Shown: positions 2,629 through 27,864 of the stretch, piece after piece | Numbering within the stretch: position 1 is the first letter of the stretch | Layout of the letters: each line of letters starts with the position of its first letter | Source: Pseudomonadota bacterium | Lineage (GTDB): Bacteria > Myxococcota_A > Polyangia > Palsa-1104 > JAEUJZ01 | DNA length: 64,000 nt | Reading direction: 5' to 3' | NCBI GenBank assembly: GCA_035340095.1 | Contig: DAORGN010000002.1 | Location: forward strand, 1,160 to 65,159 | The notes under the pieces: generated by a model | The model's database searches: none | The model's input: only the letters and a program-made list of their open reading frames with translations | Told to the model about the DNA's origin: nothing | Program-made: the position numbers and the translations under genes

Positions 2629-3674
2629 CTGTGCGGATGGCTCTGCGCGGCGAGCAGACAGAGCCGGAACAGGAGCCGGGCCCCGACGATGGCATCCCAC
2701 TCTGCATTGCCCGACACTTCGACCAGATCAAAGCCAATCACCTGTCGTCCGCTGTCCACCACCATGTCGAGCAGGAACACCGCTTCATCCCAGGTAAGAC
2801 CACCCGGCACCGGCGTTCCGGTTTCTGGACACAGCGCGGGGTCCAGGCCGTCGATGTCAAAGCTTACGTACACCTGCTGCGGCAGCGTATCGACGATGTG
2901 CTGACAGGTGCGGGCCCACGGCTCGCCATGGAAATTCCGTTTGCGCAGACCACGCATCGGGAAAAAGCTCACGCGATCGCCGGCTTCACGAATCGTCTCT
3001 TCTTCTTCGTCGCAGTAATCGCGGATTCCGACCTGCGTGAGCTTGCTGACATGTGGCAGATGCAGCACGTTTTCCATGATCGATGCGTGCGAATACTGGA
3101 AGCCTTCGTATCCGCGTCGCAGATCCGCATGCGCATCAATATGAAGTACGCCAAATGACTCATATCGGGTCGCCAGTGCGCGAATCAGACCGAGCGGCAC
3201 AGAGTGATCACCACCGAGCACGCCCACTGTCTTGCCGAGCGAAAGGTGCGCTTGCGCTTGTCGTTCCAGCCAGTCGTTTAGCTCACTTGACGCCGCGTTG
3301 ACTTCGCCCTGGTGCAAAAGCAGATCCGGATCATCACCGGCCACGCCTTGTTCCAGTCGTGCGATGCACTTTTGCGCCAGTTGTCGCAGCTTGGCGTTGC
3401 GCTTTTGCCACGCTTTGTCTTCCGGCAGCATGTAAAACCCAGCGCGCCAGCCGTCGGGCCACACCGGATCAAACAGATCCACCTGGGTTGATGCTTCCAG
3501 GATCGCCTGCGGGCCTTTGGCGGTTCCGGTTCGATACGACACCGTGACTTCCCACGGCACCGGAATCACCACCACTTGGCTGTTTTCATAGTCGAACGGC
3601 AGACCAAACAGCTTGCCGTTTTTGACGCCCACATCGCTCGGGCTGAAGGTCTTGTGTGAATCGCTCTTGCTCAT
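2625..3674 (-). CDS. arginase-family ureohydrolase (agmatinase-like)
   Basis: The Mn-binding motifs GGDHS, HIDAHADL and SFDIDGLDP match the arginase/agmatinase fold. The stop codon overlaps the stop of the convergent symporter gene through a shared CTAG. Confidence 0.75.
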   Translation of the reverse strand: MSKSDSHKTFSPSDVGVKNGKLFGLPFDYENSQVVVIPVPWEVTVSYRTGTAKGPQAILEASTQVDLFDPVWPDGWRAGFYMLPEDKAWQKRNAKLRQLAQKCIARLEQGVAGDDPDLLLHQGEVNAASSELNDWLERQAQAHLSLGKTVGVLGGDHSVPLGLIRALATRYESFGVLHIDAHADLRRGYEGFQYSHASIMENVLHLPHVSKLTQVGIRDYCDEEEETIREAGDRVSFFPMRGLRKRNFHGEPWARTCQHIVDTLPQQVYVSFDIDGLDPALCPETGTPVPGGLTWDEAVFLLDMVVDSGRQVIGFDLVEVSGNAEWDAIVGARLLFRLCLLAAQSHPHS

Positions 3675-14035: not shown

Positions 14036-15448
14036 TTAGCTGCTGCGTGGTCCGAGCGCTTCTTTGCGCATCATCGCATCGACGAGGAAAAACAGCGCAA
14101 AGTAGGCATCTTCGATGGTCGAGCGGCTGGATTCGGCGCTGTGGCCGGCCTGTCGAAAGCGCAGATAACGATCCGCAGGCAGTCCCAGCACCAGTGCACG
14201 CCAGGCCGGTCCTTCATCCGGTTCGCGCGCGGTATCGCTCACTTGCAGCGAAAAAAAGATGCCAACGGTCCGTCGGACAGCCTGCACGTACTGCGTCGCG
14301 TGGATCAGCCGCTCGACTTCTTGCACTTGCGCGCGCTGCGGACCGGGCGCAAGCAGCATGCTGAGGCCTTGATCGCGGCCCGCGGCTTCCATGCGCGGCG
14401 GCTGCGGCTGTAGCGGCGGTTTGCTCGGCTGCGCCAGCCGCGATCCCGGCATCGTCTTGTCGAGCGCCGCGGCACCATGCGGGCGGGGCGGGGCGGCTTG
14501 CGGCGGCGTATCCACGGCAATGGGACGCGGCGGACGGCTTGCGCGCGGGCGGATGATTTCTTCGACCGCGGGGAGCTGTTGACCGTCGGCGCGAACGGCT
14601 TGCACCACTTCGCTGGACTGATCGGGATTGGGCAGCGGCGGTGCCGACAGACCACTCATCGGCAGAATCTCTTGCGAGCGTCCGGCCTGTTCCCGCAGCA
14701 GTGCCGATTCGTCGATGCGCAGTGGCTGATCGAGCGTGTAGCGCTGGACCAGGCTGCGCAGTGCGGCTTGGGCTTCGTGGGCCGCCAGCATTCGACGCGC
14801 CGTCACCATGTCATTGCCAAACGACAGATCGCTCGTCGGCATCGAACCGGTTTGACCCAGCTCGGGCCGTTTGCGCAGCGCACTGGCTAGCGCTTCGGTG
14901 GCGAGCATCCGGAACGAATCAAACACCCCTTGGCCCGTCGCTGCAATCATTGGAACTGACTGCGACTGCCGGATGCCGAACGCCGGTTCCAGATCCGACA
15001 GCGCCACCGCGTCCGCGAGATCGCGCTTGTTCCATGCGACGACGAGCGGCACATCTTGAAGCCGCATCCCCAGATCGAGCAGGCAGTTGCGCAGCTCCTC
15101 GAGCGCGGCGGCACATTCGTTTTCGCGGCCTCTGCGGCTGTCCCAGACAAACAGAATTCCGTCACAACCCGCGAGCAGCGCCCGTCTGGTCGATTCGTTT
15201 TGTACGCTGCCCGAACCGGCAAAGACCTGCGCGTGTACCGGGGCTCCCAAAAGCGGTGGTGGCGGCGGATAAAAGTCGAAAAACAGGGTCCGGTCGGCAC
15301 CTGTGTTCACCGAAACAATTTGGCCGCGTACCTCGGGGCGCAGCAGCTTGTGAAGCTGTGTCAGCGCCGTGGTTTTTCCAGCTCCTGCTGGCCCGTAATA
15401 CACGAGCTTGAGGAGCACTTCGCGAGCCTGCGAATAAAGCTGCGCCAC
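14036..15448 (-). CDS. MglA-family Ras-like GTPase with ~280 aa C-terminal extension
   Basis: The N-terminal 190 aa align block-for-block with Myxococcus MglA. KLVYYGPAGAGKTT matches KIVYYGPGLCGKTT, and DRTLFFDF, GILFVWDS, NKRDL and GVFDS have counterparts. A Pro-rich linker and a C-terminal globular region of about 100 aa follow. Confidence 0.8.
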   Translation of the reverse strand: MAQLYSQAREVLLKLVYYGPAGAGKTTALTQLHKLLRPEVRGQIVSVNTGADRTLFFDFYPPPPPLLGAPVHAQVFAGSGSVQNESTRRALLAGCDGILFVWDSRRGRENECAAALEELRNCLLDLGMRLQDVPLVVAWNKRDLADAVALSDLEPAFGIRQSQSVPMIAATGQGVFDSFRMLATEALASALRKRPELGQTGSMPTSDLSFGNDMVTARRMLAAHEAQAALRSLVQRYTLDQPLRIDESALLREQAGRSQEILPMSGLSAPPLPNPDQSSEVVQAVRADGQQLPAVEEIIRPRASRPPRPIAVDTPPQAAPPRPHGAAALDKTMPGSRLAQPSKPPLQPQPPRMEAAGRDQGLSMLLAPGPQRAQVQEVERLIHATQYVQAVRRTVGIFFSLQVSDTAREPDEGPAWRALVLGLPADRYLRFRQAGHSAESSRSTIEDAYFALFFLVDAMMRKEALGPRSS

Positions 15449-15558: not shown

Positions 15559-16173
15559 CTAGGGCAGGTAGATGCGGGTGAGCGCCTGACCGCCCGCGTA
15601 GTGGCAGAGGTTGCAATCGACGCGGACTGTGGCGCCGGTGGCCGGGTCCTGACCGACTTTCTGGATCATGGTCTGGACTCGTTTTGCGGTGCTACAGTCG
15701 GGGCCGGTCGTCTCACAGACGCGGGCAATCATCGGCGCGGTAAACTTCGTCGCGGTATAGAAGTTACCGACGGAGTTGGTCGTTAGACGTCCTTTCGGCT
15801 GGACCTGACCGTACTTGTAGGCGCCTTGCGGATCGTCTTGTCCGTAGAGGATCTCGACCACCATGTTTGGCAAGCCCTCGCCGGAATTACAGCCCGAGGT
15901 CTTGTTTGCAAACAGCGTTCCCGAGACAGTCCACGGTGAGTTTTTTGCCTGTCCACCTGTGCTATGGCATGCGCCGCACACCCGACCGGGCAGCATCGTG
16001 GCAGTTGCCATTTTCATGGCATCGGTAGGGTCTTCCCCCTGACAACTGGCCTGCGCTTCGGCTGGAACTGTCAGTCCGTCGGTATCTCCGCATGCACTTG
16101 TCCCAAGCAGAGCCAGGCCCAGGCCCAGAGCCGACAGCCAACCAAGCGGCCTTCTCCCACGATGCGAACTCAT
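15559..16173 (-). CDS. lipoprotein with two CXXCH haem-binding motifs (putative c-type cytochrome)
   Basis: Start taken at MSSHRG..., which has a GGAG ribosome-binding site 6 nt upstream. The signal peptide carries lipobox LGTSAC. CGACH and CNLCH motifs are present. It is paralogous to the adjacent upstream gene. Confidence 0.6.
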   Translation of the reverse strand: MSSHRGRRPLGWLSALGLGLALLGTSACGDTDGLTVPAEAQASCQGEDPTDAMKMATATMLPGRVCGACHSTGGQAKNSPWTVSGTLFANKTSGCNSGEGLPNMVVEILYGQDDPQGAYKYGQVQPKGRLTTNSVGNFYTATKFTAPMIARVCETTGPDCSTAKRVQTMIQKVGQDPATGATVRVDCNLCHYAGGQALTRIYLP

Positions 16174-16195
16174 ATTGACTACTCCTTTTCTGTCA

Positions 16196-16705
16196 TCATT
16201 GGATGTAAATGCGGTCCGCCGCCAACCCACTGGCGAAATGGCAACTCGCGCAGCCGGTGGTGAGGTCAACTGCTCCGGTCATCTTGAGCAACATCGCGCC
16301 CTTCGAGACTCGAGCGGTTGCGTTTTTGAAGGCGGCGTTCGTCGGGAAGTGGAAATTTCCGACGGAATTCGTCATGGTGCTGGCGATGACGTTGCCCGCG
16401 GTGTCAAGGATGTCGACTTTGACGTCGGCAACTCCACCCGTGTTGCAGGTCTTGCTGTTCTTGGCTCCGTACACCGTACCACCCGTGCCGAGGATCTTGT
16501 CGGCGGCTTGCTGACCGGCTGCGTGGCAAGTCATGCAGTTGCGGCCCGGTAGCATTGCGTCCGACGCCTTCAGCATCTCGGCGGTTGGCTCTTCGCAGCC
16601 CGCTTTGGCTTGCGGTGCCGCATTGAGGTCCGCGGTATCGCCACAACCAACACCAAACAGGGGCATCGCAAACAGCAGGGCACAAGCAATGGTTCGTAGG
16701 TTCAT
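16196..16705 (-). CDS. lipoprotein with two CXXCH haem-binding motifs (paralogue)
   Basis: Start at MNLRT with a GGAG ribosome-binding site. Lipobox FGVGC. CMTCH and CASCH motifs are present, and an NSVGNF block is shared with the downstream paralogue. Confidence 0.6.
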   Translation of the reverse strand: MNLRTIACALLFAMPLFGVGCGDTADLNAAPQAKAGCEEPTAEMLKASDAMLPGRNCMTCHAAGQQAADKILGTGGTVYGAKNSKTCNTGGVADVKVDILDTAGNVIASTMTNSVGNFHFPTNAAFKNATARVSKGAMLLKMTGAVDLTTGCASCHFASGLAADRIYIQ

Positions 16706-16973
16706 CGTCACATCTCCTTTTCTCAGCAGTGCGAGCGCGTGCATCCTACGCTTTGTGCCCCCACGCCAATCTTATCTTCAAAGCCTAGGTGGCGAATAGG
16801 GGGCCTTGCGTTTGTGCGGCGGCGCTCCTTCGGTGCGACATCGCAAAACGGAGTGGTTCTGCGATTCGACCAGTGGTGCGCTTGGTTTCTGCCTCTGCGA
16901 GAGAAGGCCTGTTTTCAGGCGCCGCTTGTCCCGCACTTTGGGGTTTGGCACCTGCCTTGCTGATTGCAGCGGC

Positions 16974-18337: not shown

Positions 18338-18367
18338 TTTACAGCGAAAAATCGGCCATGGTAGTAA
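18338..18367 (+). promoter_or_regulatory. candidate sigma-70-type promoter for tRNA-Ile (TTTACA-N18-TAGTAA)
   Basis: AT-rich hexamers stand out in GC-rich DNA. The -10 element ends about 21 nt before the tRNA 5' end. Confidence 0.35.
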
Positions 18368-18388
18368 GCCAATCCTCTCTCGCGTTTT

Positions 18389-18462
18389 GGGTGCATAGCT
18401 CAGGTGGTTAGAGCGCAGCCCTGATAAGGCTGAGGTCCCTGGTTCGAATCCAGGTGCACCCA
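18389..18462 (+). tRNA. tRNA-Ile (anticodon GAT)
   Basis: A cloverleaf can be drawn. The acceptor is GGGTGCA/TGCACCC, the D-arm GCTC...GAGC, the anticodon stem CAGCC/GGCTG with loop CTGATAA (anticodon GAU), and the T-loop TTCGAAT. The discriminator is A. No CCA is encoded. Confidence 0.85.
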
Positions 18463-18466
18463 CTCG

Positions 18467-20038
18467 TTAGTATCCCTTGGTATCTAAGGGAAAACTTGGT
18501 CCTTTGGGTGGGGCAGGTTTGGCTCGGTGGCGATGCCGGCGTGTCTTCGTTGCCTTGCTCGTTTCCTCAGTTCCCGTTTCGGGCTCGGCTGAGGGGGCTT
18601 TTTTCGCGACTGCGTCTGCTGGTTCCGCTGATGCGACGCTTGCGGTCACGGGCGCTGGTTCGCTGCCTGGTCGCGCTTCCGGTACAAACAGTACTTTTTG
18701 CGCGGCTTGTTCTCTTTGGGCGGTTTGTTGACTGGCGAAGCTTGGTGTGGGCGGCGGTCGCTTTCGGAGCCAGACGCCCCACAGCACGGTCAGAATCGCA
18801 ACCACAAGCGATGCCACAGCGAGCGTTCGCGCGCGGCGTGCCGCAGTCTGGTGTGCACCGTTGGTTAGCACCGCCGTTGCCATTCGCAAAGGCCGCGTCG
18901 CTCCTGAACTGCTGATGACCGTCGGAGGGGCTCCTGAATCGCCAGGCGCGAGCGTAGGCGGACCTGACCCAGTAGAAACCTCGCCGGGACTGGCTGCTGG
19001 CTGGGGCAAGGCGGGCCGAATGGTCTGACCACTTGTCGACGGAAGGAACTGGATCAGGATCTGGAGCGCTACCGCACAATCGACGGGCCGGTTTTCCAGG
19101 GACTGCGACAGAAACTGATCGAGCGCGGGCTGCAAGTCTGGTGGAAACGTAGTGCCTGGCAGAAGCTCGGTCAGACGCAGCGGCGGCGAAACCATGCGCG
19201 CCATCACCATCGACACTTCCGATCGACTCGTTTCCCCCCACGGCAGTTTTTTGGTCAGCATTTCCGTCAAGATGACCCCGACGGCAAACACATCTGATTG
19301 GGGGCTGGCTTCGTCGCCTTGCAGCGTTTCCGGCGCCATGTAGTGCGGCGTTCCGAGCGCTGTTTGCGTCGATGTCACCCGTGTCTTGCGACCGAGTACG
19401 CGCGCGATGCCGAAGTCGAGCACCTTGACGACCTCTTCCGCCCCAACCGAAAGCGGCTTGCGCGCGACGAAGATGTTGTCCGGTTTGACGTCGCGGTGGA
19501 TGATCTGCCGAGTGTGCGCCGCCGCGAGTGCACGCACCGCCGGGATGAGCAGCTCCAGCGCCCGCAGCAGCGGCATCGGGGCTTCCCGCTGAATCAGTCG
19601 GTCGAGCGTTTCCCCCCCGAGCAGCTCCATTGCGATGTAGCTTTGGCCGTCGCTGGTGTGGCCGCTGTCGAAGATGGTCACCGCGTTTGGGTGGTCCAGG
19701 CTGCTCGCAATTTGGGCTTCCCGCTCGAAACGTTTGCGCATTTCGGCGCTCTGTCGATGCTCGCTGCGGAGCAGTTTCAGGGCGACGCGACGACCGATGC
19801 CGGCTTGGGTGGCGACGTAGACCTCGCTCATGTGGCCGTAGCCAAGCGGCTCACCCAAGACGTACTTGCCGCCGAACACGCGCTGATCGCCAAGTAGTTG
19901 TGCGCCATCTTTGGCACAAAAATTGGCGTCCCCGTCGGGTGGTAGATAAACAGAGTGGCAACTCGGGCAGTATTTGCCCAGCACGGTGGGTGGCGGATCG
20001 AAGTTTTGCGCCACGTTGTGTGCTGCAGTTTCCGTCAT
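18467..20038 (-). CDS. Ser/Thr protein kinase with N-terminal zinc-ribbon and C-terminal TM/low-complexity tail
   Basis: Hanks motifs are HRDVKPDNIF, DFGIA and GTPHYMAPE. The N-terminus has CPSCH...C. One TM helix is followed by a Pro/Ala-rich tail. The stop lies 5 nt from the tRNA 3' end on the opposite strand. Confidence 0.85.
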   Translation of the reverse strand: MTETAAHNVAQNFDPPPTVLGKYCPSCHSVYLPPDGDANFCAKDGAQLLGDQRVFGGKYVLGEPLGYGHMSEVYVATQAGIGRRVALKLLRSEHRQSAEMRKRFEREAQIASSLDHPNAVTIFDSGHTSDGQSYIAMELLGGETLDRLIQREAPMPLLRALELLIPAVRALAAAHTRQIIHRDVKPDNIFVARKPLSVGAEEVVKVLDFGIARVLGRKTRVTSTQTALGTPHYMAPETLQGDEASPQSDVFAVGVILTEMLTKKLPWGETSRSEVSMVMARMVSPPLRLTELLPGTTFPPDLQPALDQFLSQSLENRPVDCAVALQILIQFLPSTSGQTIRPALPQPAASPGEVSTGSGPPTLAPGDSGAPPTVISSSGATRPLRMATAVLTNGAHQTAARRARTLAVASLVVAILTVLWGVWLRKRPPPTPSFASQQTAQREQAAQKVLFVPEARPGSEPAPVTASVASAEPADAVAKKAPSAEPETGTEETSKATKTRRHRHRAKPAPPKGPSFPLDTKGY

Positions 20039-20333
20039 GCGTCCGCTCAGCGAGGGCAGGGCTGCGCGCCGTCGGCAAGCCCCCTTTTTTCTACGATAGC
20101 AGGATCGACCGCCGGCTGTCTCGTCGCCCGAACGCGGCTGTCAGTTCCAGCAAGTTGGATGTTTGGGCCAGGCCGAACAGTGCGGATGCGCGCGGCTTTT
20201 TGTGTCACTGCGGACTTCGCCGATACAACGACCGTTTTTCTGCGCTCGCCAAGCGAAATTCCTGCGGCTCAAGCGACGGCAAATCGCGATAAACAATTGG
20301 TTGAGTTCGCATTTTTCGCTTGCCGCGAATCTA

Positions 20334-20352
20334 TTGAATGGAATACATTCAA
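20334..20352. promoter_or_regulatory. perfect 7-5-7 palindrome TTGAATG-gaata-CATTCAA, flanked by two CAATTG sites (20294-20299, 20358-20363)
   Basis: An AT-rich dyad lies 23 nt upstream of the MerR-like gene's ATG, within the 336-bp divergent intergenic region shared with the kinase gene. Confidence 0.35.
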
Positions 20353-20374
20353 GCTATCAATTGGGGCGGCACGG

Positions 20375-21100
20375 ATGGGCCAAAAACGCGACGAGAAGCT
20401 TTCGAAAGCGAGGAATGGCAGCCGTGAGACGACAACGAGGAACGAAGCTGTGTTGAGCGAAGAACTTCTGACACCAAGCGCGCGAACGCCATCCCGACTG
20501 GGGATGAGCCGTCGTCCGCTGCGTGGTCGGCCAGTTCCCAGTCGCTCACGCAGTCATTTGCTCGAGGCCGAGATGGTCGAAATCGAGCAGCAGCACCCAG
20601 ACGGGATGACGCTTACGCAGGTGCTTTCAGCGTTCGGTGATCGCGGGATTCATCTGTCGGAAGCGACGTTTCGCAAATACGTGCAGCTTGGTCTGCTGGG
20701 CCGGAGCCGGCGCGTGGGACGCAAAGGCAAGCACCAGGGTTCGCTCGGGATGTATCCGGCGACGACGGTGCGGCGGCTTAACACGATTCGGCAGATGCTC
20801 GGGGCCCACTACACCATCGAAGACATCCAGCGCTCGTTTTTGCGCTTTGCCGACGAGATCGACAGCTTGCAGCGGGGACTTGCGGGGCTGCTCGATGGTC
20901 TTTCGCGGGAGCTCGATGGGGGCCAGTTTGCAGCCGATCGGAAGCGCGCGATGACGAAAGAGCTGCTGGCGATTCGCAAGCTCGGCAGTGATGTGGTGCA
21001 GCGCATTGAGGCGCTCGAGCGAGAGCTGGTGTCACCGCTCGAACGTGCGGCACGACAGCGAACCTTTGGCACAAGCAGCGGCAGCGACGAACTTTTGTAG
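20375..21100 (+). CDS. MerR-family-like HTH transcriptional regulator with Arg/Ser-rich N-tail and coiled-coil C-terminus
   Basis: MTLTQVLSAFGDRGIHLSEATFRKYVQLGLL followed by RVGRKGKHQGSLGMYPATTVRRLNTIRQM fits the MerR HTH and wing pattern (TL..Y...GLL...R...GYR.Y......RL..I). The ORF-track start at 19955 would overlap the kinase, so the ATG at 20375 is used. An alternative ATG lies at 20573. Confidence 0.55.
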   Translation: MGQKRDEKLSKARNGSRETTTRNEAVLSEELLTPSARTPSRLGMSRRPLRGRPVPSRSRSHLLEAEMVEIEQQHPDGMTLTQVLSAFGDRGIHLSEATFRKYVQLGLLGRSRRVGRKGKHQGSLGMYPATTVRRLNTIRQMLGAHYTIEDIQRSFLRFADEIDSLQRGLAGLLDGLSRELDGGQFAADRKRAMTKELLAIRKLGSDVVQRIEALERELVSPLERAARQRTFGTSSGSDELL

Positions 21101-21143
21101 ATGAGGTGGTTTTTCCACCGGGCGGAATGCAGGGAGACGCAGT

Positions 21144-21647
21144 ATGCAAGACATTACCCAACCACCGGACGCGACTCCGTCGGAGTGCAATGAAACAGAC
21201 GGCAACACGACCCCCGAGGTCAGCCGCAAGGTTCGCAAGCATCACAAGCGATCGCGCAGCAAGACGATAGCGCCGCGGCGGCTCACCAAAGAGGAGCTTC
21301 GCGAGGCTGCACTTCTCCCGGTGATCGACGATTCAGAACGTCCGCAGACGCGGGCCGACTGCGCGGGTGGGGCGCGTCCGTGCCCGTGGGTGTCTTGCAA
21401 GCATCACCTGTTTTTGGATGTGAATCCGGAAACCGGCAGCATCAAGCTCAACTTTCCGGACAAAGAGCTGACCGAGATGCGAGAGACATGCGCGCTTGAC
21501 GTTGCCGATCGCGGTGGAATTACGCTCGAAGAAGTGGGCGCGATTTTGAATCTCACCCGCGAGCGCATCCGCCAAGTCGAAGTCCGTGGTCTGCTCAAGC
21601 TGCGCGCCGTGAGCCCCGATGGTGACGTCGGGCGTGACATGCCCTAG
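21144..21647 (+). CDS. sigma-70 region-4-like HTH protein (region 4 only) with Cys/His-rich segment
   Basis: [29 protein letters not shown] is a sigma-70 region-4 HTH signature. [11 protein letters not shown] cluster lies upstream. A GGAG ribosome-binding site sits 8 nt before the ATG. Confidence 0.5.
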
Positions 21648-21853
21648 CCGTCCCCCTGCCATCCCCGACCTTTTTTCACTCTGCGGTCCGCTCGGGCCGT
21701 GACGACTTCCACCCCAACATGAATCGCGCTGCGCCGCTTTGCTGCTGCGGCCTGCTTTTTTCGCATGCGAAAGCGACGCGCTCTCTCGATGAGAGCGGGC
21801 GTAGGTTGTGCGGCTTTGGGAGCGAGAGCGCTGCGCGGAGGGAGGCGGGGAGG

Positions 21854-23548
21854 TTAGTACTGGTAGCCGATCTGAACGACGCCGCCGAAGTAGGTGTCGC
21901 TGGCGCCGGCAGCGAGGTGGCGGGCATCGCGGCCCGTCGCTACGTCACCCGGCGTCTGATCCACGAGCGTCTTGCCCAGGTCGAACGTGTAGTTGAATAG
22001 CTCGTAGTAGCCGCTCAGCCGGATCGTCAGACCCTTCCACACCATCGCTTCGAGGAGAGTCAGGCTGGCGCGCAGACCGTAGCCGCTCGCCGGGCCAAAG
22101 CCACCGTTGCCGTACAAATCGGCAACCGGGCCCGATGCGGTGTCGGTGTTGGCGGTGCCAAAGCGCTGGCCAATTTCACCGTAGCTTATCGGAATGTGGA
22201 CGTTCACGTCGACGACACCGGCGAAGTAGACCTTGTCGTTCACAAAATACGGGAAGCGGCCACCAAGACCGAGGGTGAAGTACTGATACAGGATGTCGGG
22301 CAGACCGTGATCGTTTACACCGTCGGCGGTCTTGTCGATGAAGTTTTCATCCTGGTACGGGTACTGCTTCTGCTCTTTCGCCACTGCAAAGAAGTGCGCG
22401 CCGTACTGGGCATTGAACAGAATCGACGGCATGTTCCGCTTGTTGAGCAGGTTGATGTGATAGCGGAGACCGCCTTCCACCTTCCACTCGCGGGTCGCCA
22501 AAAGAACCTGGCTTGTGCCCGAGCCGTACTTCGAATCCGGCCAGAAGAAGTAGTCGAACGTGGCACCAATGCCGAGACCTTTGATGGCGCCAATCCGCAT
22601 CATCGCCAGCGGGTAGGCCGTCAGATCGACGCGCACGCCGGTTGCAATCGACGTCGCAAAGCCAGGGCACGCCGCGGTGGTGCCGCGCTTATACGGCAGA
22701 TAGTGCGAAACGTAGCCGCGACCGAGCGGCATCTTGGGATCGGGAACGCGCTTTTCCAGGTCGTAGCACTTGAGCGGCGAGTCTGGACTTGAGTCTTCCG
22801 TATAGCTGAAGCTACGGCCACCGACGATCACGCCCGCGCCCGCATCAATGAACGGATAGTAAATCGGGCGAAGCAGCTCGCGCTCTTTGCGGCGTTTTTC
22901 GGCCTCGTCGCGAGCGAGCTTGGCAATCGGGTCTTCTTCCTTGCCGAGCTTGGACGTTGGGTCCGATGGCGGAGGTTCTGCCTGGGCAACCGGTGCTGGC
23001 CTGTCTTCCGGTGGGCCGGCAATTGCCGCGACTACGGCGGGACCAATCTCGCTTTCGACCGTGGTGATGGTGGCCGGCTCAACCTTGTCGTTTTTCAGAT
23101 CGTAAGTGAGCTTGCCGACCGGCTTGCCGCTCGCGCCATGGCGGGCCGCGATGTTGAGCTTGTATTGACCGGAGTCTTTGTCGGTCTTGAGCTTGCCGGT
23201 GATGACGACGTCGATCTTCTGGTCATTGGCGATGAGCGCGACGTCTTCGGTACCGTGGCCGGTGACGTTGAGCTTCTTGGCCGCCGCGTTCCACTTGGCT
23301 TCCGGAACGACGGTGTAGTCCTTCTTGAGCGCGTTTTCGATCGCCTTTTGCAGCTTCGGCGGCGCTCCCTCAATCGGGAGTACGACGACGCTCTTTTTTT
23401 CCTGTGCGGCGACGACGCTGGGATGAAGTGACAGCGCCCCAAATCCTGTCAGACCGACCAGCAGGGCGCGGCCCACTGTCCGAGCTGTGAGGAAGGACGC
23501 GAGACCGAATTCGATTCGATTGGGACTTCTGCGCAGCAAGCTCACCAT
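21854..23548 (-). CDS. outer-membrane beta-barrel protein (putative) with Lys-rich periplasmic N-domain
   Basis: N-terminal signal peptide. The C-terminal ~300 aa show alternating aromatic/hydrophobic beta-strand patterning, many G/Y/F residues and a terminal ...GYQY. Confidence 0.5.
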   Translation of the reverse strand: MVSLLRRSPNRIEFGLASFLTARTVGRALLVGLTGFGALSLHPSVVAAQEKKSVVVLPIEGAPPKLQKAIENALKKDYTVVPEAKWNAAAKKLNVTGHGTEDVALIANDQKIDVVITGKLKTDKDSGQYKLNIAARHGASGKPVGKLTYDLKNDKVEPATITTVESEIGPAVVAAIAGPPEDRPAPVAQAEPPPSDPTSKLGKEEDPIAKLARDEAEKRRKERELLRPIYYPFIDAGAGVIVGGRSFSYTEDSSPDSPLKCYDLEKRVPDPKMPLGRGYVSHYLPYKRGTTAACPGFATSIATGVRVDLTAYPLAMMRIGAIKGLGIGATFDYFFWPDSKYGSGTSQVLLATREWKVEGGLRYHINLLNKRNMPSILFNAQYGAHFFAVAKEQKQYPYQDENFIDKTADGVNDHGLPDILYQYFTLGLGGRFPYFVNDKVYFAGVVDVNVHIPISYGEIGQRFGTANTDTASGPVADLYGNGGFGPASGYGLRASLTLLEAMVWKGLTIRLSGYYELFNYTFDLGKTLVDQTPGDVATGRDARHLAAGASDTYFGGVVQIGYQY

Positions 23549-23677
23549 GGGGTCTCCACGAAAGACAGAGGGCAGCTCATCCGGAACAAGCGGTTTCTGC
23601 CACAGGCCAATACCAAACGTGGAAGCATAGTATCACAGGAATCACCTGCTACTTCGGGGAATCTCTGCACATCCCTT

Positions 23678-24784
23678 GTGATAGATTTTCCCGACATGGT
23701 GCCGTTGGTGTGTCCCACCTGCCATACGGAGTCTCCGGAAGGGAGCCGCTTTTGCAGCATGTGCGGGCAGCCGCTTTCGGGTTCGAGCCTTGTGCGGGCT
23801 TCATCCCCTGATAGACGGGTGCAGACGTCTCCTGTGGGAACGGTGCTACCGAGCGCGGTGCTTTCGGCGTTGTCGGCGGCATCATCGGATGGCCAGCGGA
23901 CGGTGTCAGCCCGCGCAGCAAGTGGGTCCAGCGGGGCGATCGGGGATCTTGCGCAATCGGGGGAAACGGTCAAAACGATCCGCGACAGCAGCGATTCGGG
24001 GGCGCTGGGTCGCTCGGTCCCGCGTGTCGTGGCCGATGAGCCAACGCTGCCGGTGCGCTATCGTCCGACACGCAAGCGCAGTGCGGCACGGGCCCTGCGA
24101 TCGGTTTTGTTTGGTCTTTTGTGGCTGCTCTTGGCGGGGCTTGTCGCGATGTCTGTGGTGTGGCTTTTGCCCGAACGCCAGGCGGGGCCAGCGAAAGAGA
24201 CGCCGGCGACGGTGATTGCGTCTGTGAAAGAACCGAGCAAGCCACCGCGAATGACTGCCCGACCGGCGGTGCCGGCTGTACCGAAAGCAGCGACTCCAAG
24301 TCCGGTTGCCGCTCCTGGCTCCGAATCGCCGCGAGTAATCCCGGCTCCCGATTCCGTCCCTAAAGCCCCTGCGGTGCCATCGCCTGTACCAGCGGAAGCG
24401 GTCGAAACCGTCCATTCCCCATCGACTACGCCAACGTCGACCGACTTTTCTGCCGTACTCAGCGGCGCGGCGCGGGCGGCGTGGCAGCAGGATCTGGCCA
24501 ACATTGAGTTTGTGGCAACCACCTATGCCGCACAGGTCCGCGCTTGCTACGAGCGGTCGATCCGCGGCCTTGGTGGAGAGGCTCCCAGCGGGCGCGTTGT
24601 TGTGCTGTTTTCGCTGACCGATGACGGAAAAGCGCAACAGCCTGTGATCAGCGAAGACTCGCTCGGTTTGCCGGTGCTGGGACCGTGTCTGACCCAGCGA
24701 CTTTCAGAATGGCGCTTTCCTCGCCCCGTAGGTCCCATTCGCACCTTCCGGTTTCCGTTTGTGTTCGCGGGCAGTCGTCCCTAA
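23678..24784 (+). CDS. zinc-ribbon/TM protein with C-terminal TonB-C-like (AgmX/PglI-type) domain
   Basis: The N-terminal double zinc ribbon is CPTCH...CSMCG. One TM helix is followed by a Pro/Ala-rich periplasmic linker. The C-terminal ~90 aa (GRVVVLFSLTDDGK...LSEWRFPRP...FRFPFVF) follow the TonB_C pattern. This is the architecture of the Myxococcus AgmX/PglI C-terminal domain family. An alternative start ATG lies at 23696. Confidence 0.55.
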   Translation: MIDFPDMVPLVCPTCHTESPEGSRFCSMCGQPLSGSSLVRASSPDRRVQTSPVGTVLPSAVLSALSAASSDGQRTVSARAASGSSGAIGDLAQSGETVKTIRDSSDSGALGRSVPRVVADEPTLPVRYRPTRKRSAARALRSVLFGLLWLLLAGLVAMSVVWLLPERQAGPAKETPATVIASVKEPSKPPRMTARPAVPAVPKAATPSPVAAPGSESPRVIPAPDSVPKAPAVPSPVPAEAVETVHSPSTTPTSTDFSAVLSGAARAAWQQDLANIEFVATTYAAQVRACYERSIRGLGGEAPSGRVVVLFSLTDDGKAQQPVISEDSLGLPVLGPCLTQRLSEWRFPRPVGPIRTFRFPFVFAGSRP

Positions 24785-24849
24785 ATCCGCTACTTTCCGC
24801 TTTCGGTTCCTGATTTTGCGATTCCAAGCCGCCCAAAATTGGGCTGATA

Positions 24850-25968
24850 ATGGAGCAACACAGCGCTGAAAGCGGTCGCTGTGCTTGGGGGTCTTTGACC
24901 ATGAGCGGCAAGACGGGGGACGAAAAGCAGTCTTCGACACTGGTCGCGTCGGCGCTGGTGATCTCGCAGCGAGAGCAGGTGCAGGCCGAGCTACAGCGGC
25001 TGCTTGCGGAAGCTGACGTAAACGCCGTCTTGGTCAGCGACTCGGATTCCGCTCGGGCACAGGTGGCCAAGACGCAGTATCCGGTTGTGCTGATTGATGT
25101 GGACTCGATTTCTTTGTCGCAAGCCGTGGTGCTGCTTGGCGACGTGCGACGTTTGGCGCCGCGGGCGGAGCTGATTGTGCTGCTCGATGAGCCGAACTTC
25201 GACGCAGCGGTACAACTGGTGCGGCGCGGTGCTGTCGACGTAGTCTGTCGTTCATCGGACGATTTGCGGCTGCTGGGGCCGCGGGTGGCGTCGGCCATGC
25301 GCGATGCCAAACAGCGAGCGGATCGCAGTCAGATGCTGCGTGACTACAGCATCTTGACCGAAGACCTCCTGTATCGGCTGACCGATACTGCGCGACGGAT
25401 TGGCGAGCTCAAAGCACAGATCCATAGCAGTGCCAAAGGATCGGGTTCGCCCGCGTCGCCGATTGACGATTATGTCAGCGTTCTGATCGTGGAAGAAGAC
25501 GGCTGGCTGTCGCAGTCGCTTTCGCCGCTTGTGTCGAGCTCGTTTTCGCTGACGACGGTGGTAAGCGGTGGTGCGGCGCTCGATCGAGTGTCAGAACGGC
25601 CTTTCGACTTGGCACTTATCAAGGAAACGCTGCCGGATTTGCCGAGTCGGACGGTGATTCGTTCGCTGCAAGCGCAGTCGCCCGAAACGCTGGTGATGCT
25701 GTATCTGCCTCCGACGCGCGGCAAGCCAGGACGGATCGATCGGCTGGAAGCCGGTGGCGGCAAAGTGACGACGCTGGTGAGCGCGTTTACATCGCCCAAA
25801 CAGCTGGCCGAACGGCTCTCCGAGCTTCAGCAAGCGCAGGCGGCACGCCGACGCGAGCGCCGTTATTTGGCCGAGTTCCGCCAAGAAAACTACGAGCTTT
25901 TGCGGCGCTTGTCCGAGCTGCGCAAACGCTACCGCGAGGTCGACAGCACACAGGGACGAGGCAAGTAG
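24850..25968 (+). CDS. tandem pseudo-receiver (REC-like) domain protein with C-terminal coiled coil (FrzS-like architecture)
   Basis: There are two REC-fold segments (VVLIDVD..., VLIVEEDG...FDLALIK). The second has Lys where the phospho-accepting Asp is expected. The tail LSELQQAQAARRRERRYLAEFRQENYELLRRLSELRKRY is a coiled coil. Confidence 0.55.
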   Translation: MEQHSAESGRCAWGSLTMSGKTGDEKQSSTLVASALVISQREQVQAELQRLLAEADVNAVLVSDSDSARAQVAKTQYPVVLIDVDSISLSQAVVLLGDVRRLAPRAELIVLLDEPNFDAAVQLVRRGAVDVVCRSSDDLRLLGPRVASAMRDAKQRADRSQMLRDYSILTEDLLYRLTDTARRIGELKAQIHSSAKGSGSPASPIDDYVSVLIVEEDGWLSQSLSPLVSSSFSLTTVVSGGAALDRVSERPFDLALIKETLPDLPSRTVIRSLQAQSPETLVMLYLPPTRGKPGRIDRLEAGGGKVTTLVSAFTSPKQLAERLSELQQAQAARRRERRYLAEFRQENYELLRRLSELRKRYREVDSTQGRGK

Positions 25969-25977
25969 GCCCGCATC

Positions 25978-26009
25978 TTGACTGACCTAGGAAAATAGCG
26001 TGTCATAAT
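25978..26009 (+). promoter_or_regulatory. candidate promoter: TTGACT ... extended -10 TGtCATAAT
   Basis: An AT-rich island lies about 95 nt upstream of the kinase ATG at 26104. A TGn-extended -10 is present. The spacing to the -35 hexamer is long at 20 nt. Confidence 0.35.
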
Positions 26010-26103
26010 ACTGGGTTTTTCTATCGCTAATGCGCTCTGACCTCTCTTTGAAATCAGGGTCCAAAGGACGGTCGGCTTGGTCCCAAGCCGCGCGACGTGC
26101 CGT

Positions 26104-27864
26104 ATGAACGATGTTCCAACCACGGGCGTCACTCGGGTGTGCGTGACCTGCCAGCAGGTCTATAACTACAAAGACCAGCACGTCTGTCCCAAAGGCGGCA
26201 AAGCCGAGGTTCCGCCAGACCCTCTGGTGGGGGCCACGATCGGCGGGCGCTACCTTATCGAGTCGTTTTTGTCCTCGGGAGGGATGGGCGTAGTCTATCG
26301 AGCCAAGCATACGGTGCTCGATAAGCCGCTCGCGATCAAGCTGCTGCGGGAAGCGCAAGATCCGATGATGCAGCAGCGCTTTCTCCTCGAAGCGAAGAGC
26401 GCGTGCCACATCGGACACGAAAACATCGTCGACATCACCGATTTCGGTGTTCTTCACGATGGCCGTCCGTATCTGGTGATGGAATTTTTGCAGGGCCAGT
26501 CGCTTGAGGCGGTGATTGCCAAAGGCGCGCTGCCACCTTTGCGGACCTGCCGAATCGCCGAACAAATTGCCCGCGGACTGCACGCCGTCCACAGCAAGGG
26601 CATCGTCCACCGAGACCTCAAACCGGGGAACATCTTTATCCTCGAGCGTGGGCGCAAAGACTTCGTCAAAATCCTCGATTTTGGCATCGCCAAGGTGATG
26701 GCCGGTACGCGCGAGTCGTTGTCTGGTGGCAGCGCGAATTTGCCGAATTTGCGGGCGACAGCGACGGGGACGGTGTTGGGAACGCCGGAATATCTGTCGC
26801 CCGAGCAGGGTGCCGGGGAAGCGTTCGATGCCCGCGTCGATCAATACGCGCTCGGCTGCATCATGTACGAAATGCTGACGGGGCAGGTGCCTTTCCGCGG
26901 CAATGGACCGATGTCCACACTGATGAAGCATCTGACGGAAAAGCCGATTCCACCGCGGAAGCGCCGTCCCGAGCTGAACATTTCCGAAACGCTCGAAAAA
27001 ATCGTGCTCAAGGCGATGGCGCAGCAGAAGGAAAGCCGCTACGCCAACATGGACGAGCTGGCCAACGTCCTTCAGGAACTCATCGACAGTGGGACGCTGC
27101 CTGCTGATCCGGTGGTTCCTCGTCCGTCGGCGTCGCTGCAAACGGTGGCGGCGAGTCTGTCGGCTTCGTCGGCGCCGCCGGTTGAGCTGTCGCCGCTGAC
27201 ATCGGGCGATATGTTTGCACCGACGCTGCAAGCCGCGATTCCGACCAAAGACGAGATCGCCAAAGAGCGCGCGAAGACACAGCCCGAATCGACCACCGCG
27301 ACGATCGATCGCGGCAACAAACCACCGTCAGAGAACCGAGAAAAAGCGCCGCTTGCGACCGAGCAGGTTCGTCCCATCGTCCTTGCGAAACCGAATCGGC
27401 TGCCGCTGCTGTTGCTCGGGGTGGCGGCGGTGATGGTGCTGCTGCTGATTGGCGTGCTTGTCGTAAGGCTTGGGCCCGGCAGCAAACCGTCACAGCCTGT
27501 GCCGGCGGTGGACCTTGGCGAACGCAAAGTCGAAACGCCAGTGCCGGTTGAATCGCCGCCCACCGATGAGCACAAAGTCGAGCTGGAAAACAAGACGGCG
27601 GGCAAAGTGACTGTTCTGTGTGGTCCGAAAAAAAGCTGCATTCTCGACGCGGGAAAGACCTGCGAGCTTGCGCTTTCGCCGGACGCGCGATGTGAAGCGA
27701 GCGCCACTGGGTTTGTCAGCCGCAGCCTGGATGTCGGAAGCGCCGTCAAGCACGCGGGCAAAGGACAAACCGCGCATCTGGCGGTTCACCTTGACGCCGA
27801 AAAGCCGGTGGGCAAAGTCAAAAAGTCCAAGGGCTCCAAGGCGGGCAAGGGCAAAAAGCGCTAA
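26104..27864 (+). CDS. Ser/Thr protein kinase with N-terminal zinc-ribbon, one TM, Cys-rich periplasmic C-domain
   Basis: GRYLIESFLSSGGMGVVYRAKH, HRDLKPGNIF, DFGIAK and GTPEYLSPE are Hanks motifs. The N-terminus has CVTCQ...CPKG. A TM helix sits at ~aa 445. The C-terminal domain has four Cys and a Lys-rich tail. The start is set at the ATG at 26104. The ORF track uses a TTG at 26077. Confidence 0.85.
   Translation: MNDVPTTGVTRVCVTCQQVYNYKDQHVCPKGGKAEVPPDPLVGATIGGRYLIESFLSSGGMGVVYRAKHTVLDKPLAIKLLREAQDPMMQQRFLLEAKSACHIGHENIVDITDFGVLHDGRPYLVMEFLQGQSLEAVIAKGALPPLRTCRIAEQIARGLHAVHSKGIVHRDLKPGNIFILERGRKDFVKILDFGIAKVMAGTRESLSGGSANLPNLRATATGTVLGTPEYLSPEQGAGEAFDARVDQYALGCIMYEMLTGQVPFRGNGPMSTLMKHLTEKPIPPRKRRPELNISETLEKIVLKAMAQQKESRYANMDELANVLQELIDSGTLPADPVVPRPSASLQTVAASLSASSAPPVELSPLTSGDMFAPTLQAAIPTKDEIAKERAKTQPESTTATIDRGNKPPSENREKAPLATEQVRPIVLAKPNRLPLLLLGVAAVMVLLLIGVLVVRLGPGSKPSQPVPAVDLGERKVETPVPVESPPTDEHKVELENKTAGKVTVLCGPKKSCILDAGKTCELALSPDARCEASATGFVSRSLDVGSAVKHAGKGQTAHLAVHLDAEKPVGKVKKSKGSKAGKGKKR

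Follow-up and report, generated by a model that had tools for sequence, protein, structure and literature searches.

Three neighboring genes in the window, the whole 64,000-nucleotide stretch of DNA that was analyzed, encode a conserved and previously undescribed module, in which an outer-membrane (OM) β-barrel, an inner-membrane (IM) protein with a GltJ/GltG-type, TonB-C-like tail, and a degenerate tandem receiver (REC-REC) together span the envelope. So far, this three-protein module occurs only in metagenome genomes of uncultured Polyangia/Myxococcales. We infer a GltJ-like trans-envelope relay or tether with a probable link to pilus or surface functions. A sequence-only reading of this DNA had described a signaling cluster of seven genes acting as one unit. 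That observation is confirmed in part and its interpretation is partly supported: the joint encoding of barrel, IM protein, and receiver goes far beyond chance, but the seven genes are not borne out as one unit, and their order is not the one given in its text. Seven open reading frames and one tRNA-Ile(GAU) are found in the region 18338–27864, in the following true order:

18389–18463, plus strand: tRNA-Ile (GAU), found by ARAGORN and matching the Rfam tRNA model with 73 bits
18467–20038, minus strand: STK1, a membrane Ser/Thr kinase of 523 aa
20504 or 20573 (two possible starts) to 21100, plus strand: MerR-like gene
21144–21647, plus strand: sigma-r4-only gene
21854–23548, minus strand: OM β-barrel gene, core gene 1, 564 aa
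23549–23677: divergent intergenic region between the barrel and ZnR-AgmX genes
23678–24784, plus strand: ZnR-TM-AgmX/PglI-tail gene for the IM protein, core gene 2, 368 aa
24901–25968, plus strand: tandem-REC gene, core gene 3, 355 aa (372 aa if the start is at 24850)
26077–27864, plus strand: STK2, a membrane Ser/Thr kinase of 595 aa, the clade-specific fourth gene

The tRNA-Ile bounds the region on the left and lies outside the module; its position is kept only in the collinear relative L012.

The module emerges from 30 non-redundant loci with a REC-REC homolog, namely the window and 29 relatives, all of which come from uncultured Polyangia/Myxococcales. Seventeen of the 30 share one layout, with the barrel gene on the minus strand and the ZnR-TM-AgmX-tail gene followed by the REC-REC gene on the plus strand; three loci are cut by contig ends and ten do not have the arrangement. 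The trio survives at 29–40% identity of the REC-REC protein and 20–29% of the barrel, with differing flanking genes. The ZnR-AgmX and REC-REC genes are spaced by 43–116 bp, and in L006 they overlap start to stop, which suggests translational coupling. Moreover, losses are joint: L002 has no barrel gene, and its IM protein is cut to zinc ribbon and TM helix with the periplasmic tail gone, while in the other barrel-less loci the IM protein is entirely absent.

The OM barrel assigned earlier holds, with an N-domain that is TolB-N/LpoB-like:

residues ~1–49 (nt 23402–23548): signal-peptide-like N-terminus
residues 50–178 (nt 23015–23401): TolB-N/LpoB-like periplasmic α/β domain
residues 234–564 (nt 21857–22849): β-barrel, ending ...GYQY

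A linker and a helix connect the periplasmic domain to the barrel. The protein carries neither a Plug domain nor a recognizable TonB box, and the barrel is likened to small 10–12-strand barrels, not to TonB-dependent transporters. The intergenic region upstream contains strongly conserved blocks, e.g., GGAAGCATnnTATCACAG and CCACTTC (window, L007, L008, L011, L012, and partly L001), and presumably holds the promoters of both the barrel and ZnR-AgmX genes; a consensus promoter scan of 23549–23677 gave nothing above chance. Because promoter and terminator scans stayed at chance level, operon structure is deduced from spacing alone.

The product of core gene 2 is a predicted bitopic IM protein with the zinc ribbon in the cytoplasm and the TonB-C-like domain in the periplasm, joined to the TM helix by a Pro-rich periplasmic spacer:

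C12–C29 (nt 23711–23767): cytoplasmic single zinc ribbon
residues 38–58 (nt 23789–23851): conserved cytoplasmic linker motif
residues ~143–164 (nt 24104–24169): TM helix
residues 274–363 (nt 24497–24766): AgmX/PglI (TonB-C-like) C-terminal domain with two invariant Cys

L011 and L012 likewise have an ATG where the start of this gene is placed, which backs its start codon. The zinc ribbon (CPTC-x10-CSMC) is single, not double as first read: Zn_Ribbon_1 passes (25.4 bits; cutoff 25), but the match to the DZR model covers just half of that model and stays below cutoff. For the tail, NF033768, the model of the AgmX/PglI C-terminal domain, scores 52.9 bits (cutoff 40), and the family profile matches the solved TonB C-domains 6i97 and 6fip (E = 5e-4), although Pfam TonB_C on the single sequence remains below threshold (13.2 bits; cutoff 24.6). 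The family alignment contains an invariant CPxC...FCxxCG, R40/A41, C290, and C337. In the L001/L010 lineage, the zinc ribbon is gone although barrel, tail protein, REC-REC, and STK2 all remain; the ribbon therefore cannot be the sole docking site. For the kinases, the idea of zinc ribbons as a docking mode common to these proteins finds no support.

The REC-REC protein is divided as follows; the Met at 24901 corresponds to the start of its homologs:

residues 17–116 (nt 24949–25248): REC1
residues 122–178: long helix
residues 192–296 (nt 25474–25788): REC2, a pseudo-receiver
residues 299–352 (nt 25795–25956): conserved C-terminal helices with the motif RERRYLAEFRxENYELLRR

Response_reg matches in two stretches (31.9 bits; cutoff 30.2), and the AF2 model (pLDDT 88) displays the order REC, long helix, REC, long helices, with a helix of ~55 residues after each of the two CheY folds. 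Its best PDB fold match is the REC-REC pair of PleD (Foldseek E = 1.5e-9). The tandem receivers called earlier are confirmed, whereas the degenerate acceptor sites apply to REC2, which never carries the acceptor Asp and has a Lys at CheY position 57 in the window, but not to REC1, which retains it. At the CheY sites, REC1 of the window has S/Q at 12/13, D at 57, L at 87, and R at 109. In ten loci, the REC-REC gene is present with neither barrel nor tail protein, and its C-terminal helix motif is still conserved; the receiver accordingly has a partner or a role outside the trio.

Both kinases match Pkinase (STK1 with 162 bits, STK2 with 157 bits), but the N-terminal zinc ribbons ascribed to them find no HMM support: STK1 starts with CPSC...FCAKDG and STK2 with CxxC...HxC, each with three Cys, and no zinc-ribbon or 4-Cys-prefix model matched. 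STK1 further has one TM helix and a low-complexity tail. STK2 comprises a kinase domain (residues 63–323), a TM helix (residues ~455–478), and an extracytoplasmic tail of ~115 aa with four Cys. An STK2 ortholog directly follows the REC-REC gene in L001/L010, L007, L008, L009, L011, and L012, and the four-gene block from barrel to STK2 in L001 has both flanks different from those of the window.

Distant versions of the cluster independently back the motility and polarity flavor that had been proposed. In all seven of the most distant loci, the barrel and ZnR genes flank a gene for a pilus-retraction-type ATPase of the PilT/PilU family (462.9 bits on TIGR01420; cutoff 319); six of these seven also have a PilZ protein gene nearby, and bactofilin genes are near the cluster in two distant loci. 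Within the 64-kb window, no PilT, PilZ, or pilus gene is present. PilT is absent from the cluster in the entire clade of the window, where STK2 follows the receiver gene instead. REC1 of the PilT-linked members has D12, D57, and K109, whereas the combination S/Q, D57, L87, and R109, in which the Mg2+/phosphoryl-site residues are lost, coincides exactly with the STK2-carrying clade. This link between REC1 decay and kinase gain stems from a single clade and represents one evolutionary event.

From the folds, predicted topology, linkage, and co-loss patterns we infer the physical contacts, the direction of signaling, and the output. The IM protein would be a cut-down GltJ. Its zinc ribbon and the short, conserved motif of its linker would face the cytoplasm, one TM helix would cross the membrane, and the Pro-rich spacer would span the periplasm and so bring the AgmX/PglI domain up to the TolB-N/LpoB-like domain of the barrel, whose gene is divergent. 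The putatively co-transcribed REC-helix-pseudoREC-helix protein, probably a dimer via its long helices, would dock on the IM protein from the cytoplasm and set its state. In the distant lineages, which probably reflect the ancestral state, REC1 looks Asp-phosphorylatable and the PilT/PilU-family ATPase is part of the cluster; the module would therefore be likely to control a type-IV-pilus-like or surface/motility function. In the clade of the window, the PilT gene would have left the cluster, REC1 would have lost its Asp phospho-chemistry residues, and the added membrane kinase STK2 would probably rewire the input to Ser/Thr phosphorylation, with STK1 and the MerR-like/sigma-r4-only genes as mere neighbors. 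We give this composite reading, i.e., an envelope-spanning trio with pilus or surface output and rewired input in the window clade, an even chance of being correct.

A second reading takes the module as accessory to a type IV pilus or to a PilT-driven machine, with the IM protein as a ZitP-like membrane landmark, a receiver that tunes the PilT-family ATPase, and the barrel as a pilus-associated OM component; the PilT-less version in the window would then be a remnant or serve a PilT encoded elsewhere. This explanation overlaps with the envelope-spanning relay and differs mainly in taking PilT as the obligatory effector. It draws on the seven PilT-containing clusters with their PilZ and bactofilin neighbors, and on ZitP, a bitopic zinc-finger protein required for pilus biogenesis and motility (PMC5182063), whose zinc ribbon is resembled by that of GltJ (PMC11135422). 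We consider it unlikely, as PilT is missing from the cluster in 10 of the 17 trio loci, window included, no listed cluster contains a secretin, PilC, PilMNOP, or pilin gene, and the periplasmic domain is TonB-C-like, not ZitP-type.

An energized system of the TonB/TolA type, in which the IM protein is a transducer driven by a proton-motive-force motor encoded elsewhere and acts on the barrel for substrate import or export, is distinctly improbable. The TonB-C-like domain and the Pro-rich spacer do resemble TonB and TolA, and the family relative GltG interacts with the motor subunit AglR in a two-hybrid assay (PMC3169522). Yet no ExbBD/TolQR/AglRQS-type motor gene lies within 8–10 kb in the eight loci listed with Pfam labels, MotA/ExbB, ExbD, and TolQ/R genes being absent from all eight, and the barrel is plug-less. 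TonB and TolA use a His of the SHLS type in their TM helix, which the TM helix VLFGLLWLLLAGLVAMSVVW of the IM protein does not contain. Further, Ton/Tol systems have no cytoplasmic zinc ribbon or receiver partner.

We assign a small probability to the trio being inherited gene order devoid of physical or regulatory coupling. All loci derive from one class (Polyangia/Myxococcales MAGs) and the REC-REC gene stands alone in ten, as such inheritance would allow, but the order persists at 29–40% protein identity with every flank different, barrel and periplasmic tail are lost jointly in L002, and the L006 overlap points to coupled translation.

As for the remaining genes, the MerR-like (MerR_1, a marginal 23.1 bits; cutoff 21.6) and sigma-r4-only assignments (Sigma70_r4, 37.5 bits; cutoff 24.1; region 2 absent) hold, and the two form an independent conserved gene pair outside the module. 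A search for r4-only homologs gave at least 8000 matches, the best 120 of which are 164–203 aa long and 63–92% identical. In L036, genes for NusB and CTP synthase flank the same pair, whose MerR-like protein is 59% identical there; on another contig, the pair has AAA/CsgG and purine genes next to it. Like the STK1 ortholog, the pair adjoins the trio only in L008, L011, and L012. Metabolic genes on the right flank (BoxC/BoxB-like) are common to these three and the window, and in L012, which is collinear on both sides, HMG-CoA synthase and tRNA-Ile are shared on the left as well; the adjacency is therefore plain synteny, and STK1 counts as a neighbor, not as a proven member of the module. Consequently, a single seven-gene trans-envelope unit ending in transcription control, for which the contiguity, the full layout in these three loci, and the output that a DNA-binding pair would supply to a signaling cascade can be cited, retains only a very small probability and is largely refuted by this synteny, by L007 and L001 (79% and 73% REC-REC identity), which keep barrel to STK2 without STK1, MerR-like, and sigma-r4 genes, and by the MerR-like/sigma-r4 pair itself, which is far better conserved than the trio and elsewhere occupies unrelated housekeeping contexts.

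Among known systems, FrzS and AglZ share with the REC-REC protein a degenerate CheY-like domain, helical, probably coiled-coil segments, a non-enzymatic nature, and a myxobacterial motility context. The FrzS architecture assigned earlier is nevertheless wrong: in FrzS, a single Asp-less pseudo-receiver is combined with a degenerate DNA-binding domain and a coiled coil of great length (PMC9811614, PMC1974792), whereas the REC-REC protein has two receivers, the Asp in REC1, and short helices, and no search returned a FrzS-specific match for it. PleD is closer, with a phosphorylatable REC followed by an adaptor pseudo-REC, but the REC-REC protein has no GGDEF or other enzymatic output, and its ~55-residue helices and the conserved motif RERRYLxxFRxENYELLRR, which has no PleD counterpart, set it apart. 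ZitP, the polar regulator of pilus biogenesis in Caulobacter, matches the IM protein in topology, with a zinc ribbon in the cytoplasm, one TM helix, and a domain in the periplasm (PMC5182063), and, via PilT in the clusters of distant relatives, in its pilus link; the periplasmic domain differs. GltG (PglI, MXAN_4867) and TonB/TolA are likewise bitopic with a TonB-C-like periplasmic end, but the IM protein has no FHA domains and reaches 29.1 bits on the GltG model (cutoff 650); moreover, ExbBD/TolQR-type genes are absent from the loci listed with Pfam labels, and in place of a TonB-dependent transporter or TolB the OM partner is a small barrel without a plug. The GltG-GltD contact has been compared to TolA binding TolB (PMC11761067), an analogy that fits a TonB-C-like domain meeting the TolB-N-like domain of the barrel. 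GltJ (AgmX, MXAN_4862) of the Myxococcus xanthus Agl-Glt machinery differs in length (674 aa versus 368 aa), in its GYF domain, which is absent here, and in its equivalog model, on which the IM protein scores 16.9 bits (cutoff 450); moreover, the locus is not a glt cluster, GltD/E/C/I-type TPR proteins and AglRQS genes are not nearby, and the partners are a tandem receiver and an OM barrel. Both proteins nonetheless combine an N-terminal cytoplasmic zinc ribbon, a flexible linker, a single TM helix, a long periplasmic segment that is disordered, and, at the C-terminus, a TonB-C-like domain of the NF033768 family (PMC11135422, PMC11761067). In the gliding machinery, GltJ (zinc ribbon, linker, and GYF, TM, TonB-C domain) and GltG connect regulators in the cytoplasm with periplasmic and OM parts (PMC11135422, PMC11761067, PMC3169522).

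The outer-membrane (OM) barrel gene and, divergent from it, the genes for a zinc-ribbon inner-membrane (IM) protein and for a protein with two CheY-like receivers (REC-REC) form a trio that is conserved across distant genomes, while the neighboring genes join it only among close relatives. The region and its features are arranged as follows, all seven open reading frames having coding-type GC3:

18389-18463, plus strand: tRNA-Ile(GAU), the only Rfam match
18467-20038, minus strand: membrane Ser/Thr kinase STK1
20504 or 20573 to 21100, plus strand: MerR-like protein
21144-21647, plus strand: sigma-70 region-4-only protein
21854-23548, minus strand: OM-barrel candidate
23678-24784, plus strand: protein with zinc ribbon, transmembrane (TM) helix and AgmX/PglI tail
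24901-25968, plus strand: tandem-receiver protein; the frame opens at 24850, and homologues begin at the Met of 24901
26077-27864, plus strand: membrane Ser/Thr kinase STK2

Gene linkage was surveyed in 29 further non-redundant loci, scored by tblastn and by HMMs from the orthologues. The genome pattern search was run with the closer alignment set A2, the 40-sequence alignment A1 being too diverse; five Microcoleus loci that it returned (L031-L035) were dropped as weak single-REC matches. A minus-strand barrel gene followed by plus-strand genes for the IM and REC-REC proteins occurs in 17 loci including the window, three loci are truncated by contig ends, and ten lack the arrangement. The trio is kept at 29-40% receiver and 20-29% barrel identity despite differing flanking genes. 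An STK2 orthologue directly follows the REC-REC gene in seven cases, all with at least 73% REC-REC identity (window, L001/L010, L007, L008, L009, L011, and L012). Since both flanks of the four-gene block in L001 are unlike those of the window, STK2 stays linked to the trio within this clade. All-against-all clustering of the locus ORFs gave no additional family co-conserved across clades, although shadow ORFs of the high-GC DNA added noise to its output.

The sequence-only reading had taken seven genes as one trans-envelope signaling unit. The survey bears out conserved neighborhood for the trio, but STK1, the MerR-like gene, and the sigma-r4-only gene adjoin it in only four loci (window, L008, L011, and L012). 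The same four share the right-flank genes, and L012 also has the left flank of the window, with the MglA-like gene, HMG-CoA synthase, and tRNA-Ile. In L007, at 79% receiver identity, all three genes are absent, and the MerR-like/sigma-r4 pair recurs in unrelated contigs; the seven genes thus do not behave as one unit. As judged from gene order, the adjacency of STK1 and the pair to the trio is ordinary synteny.

The pair itself is a conserved unit separate from the trio. It recurs in L036 (2861-4023; MerR-like protein 59% identical to that of the window) between NusB and CTP synthase genes, and on another unrelated contig the same upstream gene precedes the r4-only gene, beside AAA/CsgG and purine-synthesis genes. 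The MerR assignment holds marginally (MerR_1 23.1 bits versus 21.6, with partial coverage of positions 11-65 of 69), and no effector-binding domain was identified. The region-4 assignment holds for the second half of the model only (Sigma70_r4 37.5 bits versus 24.1; 20-50 of 50), while regions 2 and 3 were not found with Pfam or NCBIfam. NCBI names relatives “sigma factor-like helix-turn-helix DNA-binding protein”. The r4-only protein is conserved far more strongly than the trio: the best 120 of at least 8000 homologues have 164-203 aa and are 63-92% identical. It also carries a conserved Cys/His patch. Both kinases are confirmed, with Pkinase (PF00069) above the gathering score (STK1 162.3 bits, STK2 157 bits). 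Their proposed N-terminal zinc ribbons did not hold up against NF045510 and the Pfam zinc ribbons, with no HMM match for STK2 and about 13 bits, below threshold, for STK1; the N-terminal motifs CPSC...FCAKDG and CVTC...HVCP contain three Cys apiece.

The surroundings are metabolic, with HMG-CoA synthase on the left and, on the right, an enoyl-CoA-hydratase-family gene and a PaaA/PaaC-like gene, which we take to be BoxC/BoxB-like. The tRNA-Ile(GAU) gene (18389-18463, plus strand) stands isolated between HMG-CoA synthase and the kinase gene, outside any rRNA operon spacer. Neither integrase nor repeat evidence of an island was found at this site, and a PHROGs search returned only generic sigma and REC matches; nothing points to a mobile element, even with a tRNA gene adjoining. 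Some 3 kb to the left of these genes, and collinear in L012 alone, a minus-strand gene (14036-15448) encodes a 470-aa protein with an MglA-like part of 194 residues followed by a Pro-rich extension of ~275 aa. The first 194 residues are 36% identical to M. xanthus MglA; Pfam matches are weak (Arf/DO-GTPase2). Two overlapping or adjacent minus-strand ORFs of 236 aa (15559-16269) and 182 aa (16196-16744) appear to be paralogous, each being 32-38% identical to both L012 copies and 67-73% to its own orthologue; the 182-aa product has weak bMG3 and paired-CXXCH matches.

A promoter and terminator scan gave matches no better than chance. The 129-bp divergent intergenic stretch between the barrel and IM protein genes (23549-23677) is conserved near coding level among relatives at 73-79% protein identity. 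Blocks common to these relatives include GGAAGCATnnTATCACAG and CCACTTCGGGGAATC, possible promoter or operator elements.

The 564-aa OM-barrel protein belongs to no described family: it has no Pfam or NCBIfam match, and all 38 homologues are unnamed or “hypothetical”. An AlphaFold2 model from a 29-sequence alignment (pLDDT 79) comprises an N-terminal hydrophobic helix serving as signal sequence, an alpha/beta domain (residues 50-178), a Pro-rich disordered linker with one helix, and a barrel (residues 234-563) with a near-invariant Gln-Tyr terminus. The signal sequence, the closed antiparallel barrel, and the C-terminal aromatic residue together support the OM beta-barrel call. A 555-576-aa gene convergent with REC-REC in L002 and L005 was considered as a barrel analogue and rejected; it encodes an unrelated putative lipoprotein that gave no hit with the barrel HMM or with any family.

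The IM protein belongs to the AgmX/PglI-tail domain family. Its residues 274-363 match NF033768 (myxo_SS_tail, 92 positions) with 52.9 bits over model positions 4-91 (curated cutoff 40), and the orthologue in L006, a distant locus, reaches 76.4 bits. It is neither GltJ nor GltG: the GltJ equivalog NF033761 scores 16.9 bits against a cutoff of 450, the GltG equivalog NF033760 scores 29.1 bits against 650 and covers the C-terminal 87 residues alone, and GYF and FHA domains have no Pfam match in the protein. The proposed TonB-C-like character of the periplasmic end is supported by NF033768 and by the family profile, but not by Pfam TonB_C (PF03544) on the single sequence, which stays under threshold (13.2 bits, E = 0.12, cutoff 24.6) as the sole Pfam family reported. 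A profile of 14 orthologues (A5) matches solved TonB C-terminal domains (PDB chains 6i97_D, E = 5e-4, and 6fip_A, E = 6.5e-4) and thus supports this nature of the tail, in agreement with published work on GltG and GltJ (PMC3169522, PMC11761067). On the cytoplasmic side, the supposed double zinc ribbon is actually a single CPxC-x10-CxxC unit (Zn_Ribbon_1 25.4 bits, cutoff 25).

Four features are conserved across the family: the ribbon CPxC...FCxxCG, a short motif near R40/A41 on the cytoplasmic side, the TM helix, and a tail domain with two Cys. The linker and periplasmic spacer range in length from ~60 to >300 residues. L002 has no barrel gene, and its IM protein is cut down to zinc ribbon and TM helix, with the periplasmic tail gone. 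This co-loss fits a partnership of the tail with the barrel and of the ribbon with the receivers. The IM orthologue of L001/L010 (9031-9873; 73% REC-REC identity) has no zinc ribbon but retains TM helix, spacer, and tail, which counts against a strict role of the ribbon. Downstream of STK2, these two loci also encode two FHA proteins, one of them with a double zinc ribbon.

The REC-REC protein is a receiver-family member with PleD-like REC-pseudoREC order and without enzymatic output. Response_reg (PF00072) matches in two stretches (31.9 bits, cutoff 30.2), and the AlphaFold2 model (pLDDT 88) shows two (beta-alpha)5 units: REC1 (17-116), a 57-residue helix (122-178), a short Gly/Ser/Pro linker, REC2 (192-296), and a C-terminal helix of ~55 residues (299-352). 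Foldseek matched receiver domains with TM up to 0.89 on target, the top PDB fold matches being the REC-REC pair of PleD. Within the family, conservation peaks in the C-terminal helix, RERRYLxxFRxENYELLRR. Site positions were assigned by alignment to CheY. At the equivalents of D12/D13, D57, T/S87, and K109, the window has S, Q, D, L, and R in REC1 and E, E, K, P, and S in REC2; neither carries the full signature of a phosphorylatable receiver. The acceptor Asp of REC1 is invariant across the family, and that of REC2 is absent in every member and mostly replaced by Lys. The reading of two receivers with degenerate phospho-acceptor sites is therefore right about the two folds and about REC2, but REC1 retains its Asp. 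Distant members carry D12, D57, K109, and often T87 in REC1; the window clade has S/Q, L87, and R109. The comparison with FrzS fails, since FrzS combines one N-terminal pseudo-receiver lacking the acceptor Asp with a degenerate DNA-binding domain and a very long coiled coil (PMC9811614), whereas two receivers, REC1 with Asp, and helices limited to 122-178 and 299-352 are found here.

Homologues fall into 106 clusters at 90% identity, and exhaustively searching the representatives at 50% identity yielded 171 proteins at E <= 1e-30, the top-scoring ones mostly full-length; the organism names are Polyangia or Myxococcales MAGs only. Rosetta-stone fusions were not among them: the longer members P0269 and P0278 are extended N-terminally by acidic low-complexity sequence alone, and P0395 is an unrelated triple-REC protein. 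The REC-REC protein also exists without the trio. In one sub-clade of this kind (L003, L016, and L018-L022), barrel and tail genes are absent. Its members have a Pro-rich insert of 40-60 residues between the receivers and a Gly/Ser-rich tail, and their own conserved neighbors encode an AAA ATPase, a 147-aa protein (faint TerB), a MoCF_biosynth protein, and a HAMP-guanylate-cyclase.

The seven trio loci most distant from the window (L006, L025, L027-L029, L037, and L038; receivers 28-37% identical to its own) all have a gene for a PilT/PilU-family ATPase between the barrel and zinc-ribbon genes. TIGR01420 scores 462.9 bits in L006 (cutoff 319), and the cluster copies are mutually 63-85% identical. 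L006, L037, and L038 share receivers at ~40% and barrels at 22-29% identity and have rearranged flanks, so the linkage is old. A PilZ-domain protein (PF07238, 41.7 bits) adjoins the barrel gene in L037 and lies ~3 kb off in five other loci, and bactofilin genes are close by in L006 and L037. No PilT or PilZ homologue is present within the 64 kb of the window. The PilZ protein is conserved near the PilT-containing clusters of L037, L006 (~3231-3533, an uncalled gene), L025, and L027-L029; in L037 (1275-3980, minus strand), its other ~800 residues form an extreme acidic Pro-Glu-Ala repeat. The two most distant loci have a second conserved bitopic family close to the cluster (L037 9076-10284, minus strand; L038 2692-4092, plus strand), with the common motif ...RY.L.C....A.R...FPWPFG... 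and no Pfam match.

From folds, topology, linkage, and co-loss we infer the contacts, direction of signaling, and output of an envelope-spanning relay or tether, by analogy with GltJ/GltG (PMC11135422, PMC11761067) and TolA-TolB. The TonB-C-like tail would dock onto the TolB-N-like domain of the barrel, and the cytoplasmic ribbon and linker would dock a dimeric REC-pseudoREC adaptor. A classical energized Ton/Tol mechanism would use the same tail, its stator possibly being encoded elsewhere. Several features argue against it: no ExbBD/TolQR-type gene and no MotA_ExbB, ExbD, or Plug family occurs in the eight Pfam-labeled cluster gene tables or among the scanned window neighbors, the barrel is plug-less, and the TM helix of the IM protein has no His. 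For the relay or tether, the state of the distant PilT-linked members is probably set through Asp phosphorylation of REC1 and probably read out via the PilT-family ATPase or a pilus or surface function. In the window clade, PilT is gone from the cluster, the phospho-chemistry residues of REC1 are lost, and a membrane kinase lies downstream, which suggests that the input was rewired to Ser/Thr phosphorylation. Taken as a whole, we put forward as a speculative and rather improbable model that a GltJ-like trans-envelope module of barrel, IM protein, REC-pseudoREC protein, and ancestrally PilT couples a cytoplasmic phospho-signal to OM or pilus function, with the input in the lineage of the window moved from Asp phosphorylation of REC1 to control by the adjacent membrane Ser/Thr kinase.

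In Myxococcus gliding, GltJ connects cytoplasmic polarity regulators to the envelope, and to our knowledge AgmX/PglI-tail proteins are known functionally only from this machine. A much simpler three- or four-gene version would give a minimal system in which a TonB-C-like domain relays force or information through the periplasm with no large Glt scaffold. The PilT linkage in distant members hints at an unrecognized connection between a GltJ-type transducer and a pilus-type motor, and the apparent passage from an Asp-phosphorylatable receiver to a degenerate receiver plus Ser/Thr kinase would exemplify natural rewiring of signaling. All trio members come from uncultured organisms, and no trio protein has a named homologue; a literature search retrieved only work on Glt, FrzS, and ZitP and no description of the combination. 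Tidy and minimal, the trio is kin to a machine that has been studied in depth and has an intriguing PilT link, but it is known from metagenomes only.

We place the trio among the TonB-C-like trans-envelope couplers (Ton/Tol/Glt type), from which it differs in defined ways. GltJ has a cytoplasmic architecture of zinc ribbon and GYF and 674 aa, whereas the IM protein has 368 aa and no GYF; GltG carries cytoplasmic FHA domains, which the IM protein lacks. TonB and Tol systems combine an ExbB/ExbD or TolQ/TolR stator with a plug-containing or TolB-type partner, whereas the clusters in the eight Pfam-labeled gene tables show no MotA_ExbB, ExbD, or Plug family. PleD has a similar REC-REC arrangement, but the REC-REC protein carries no enzymatic output.
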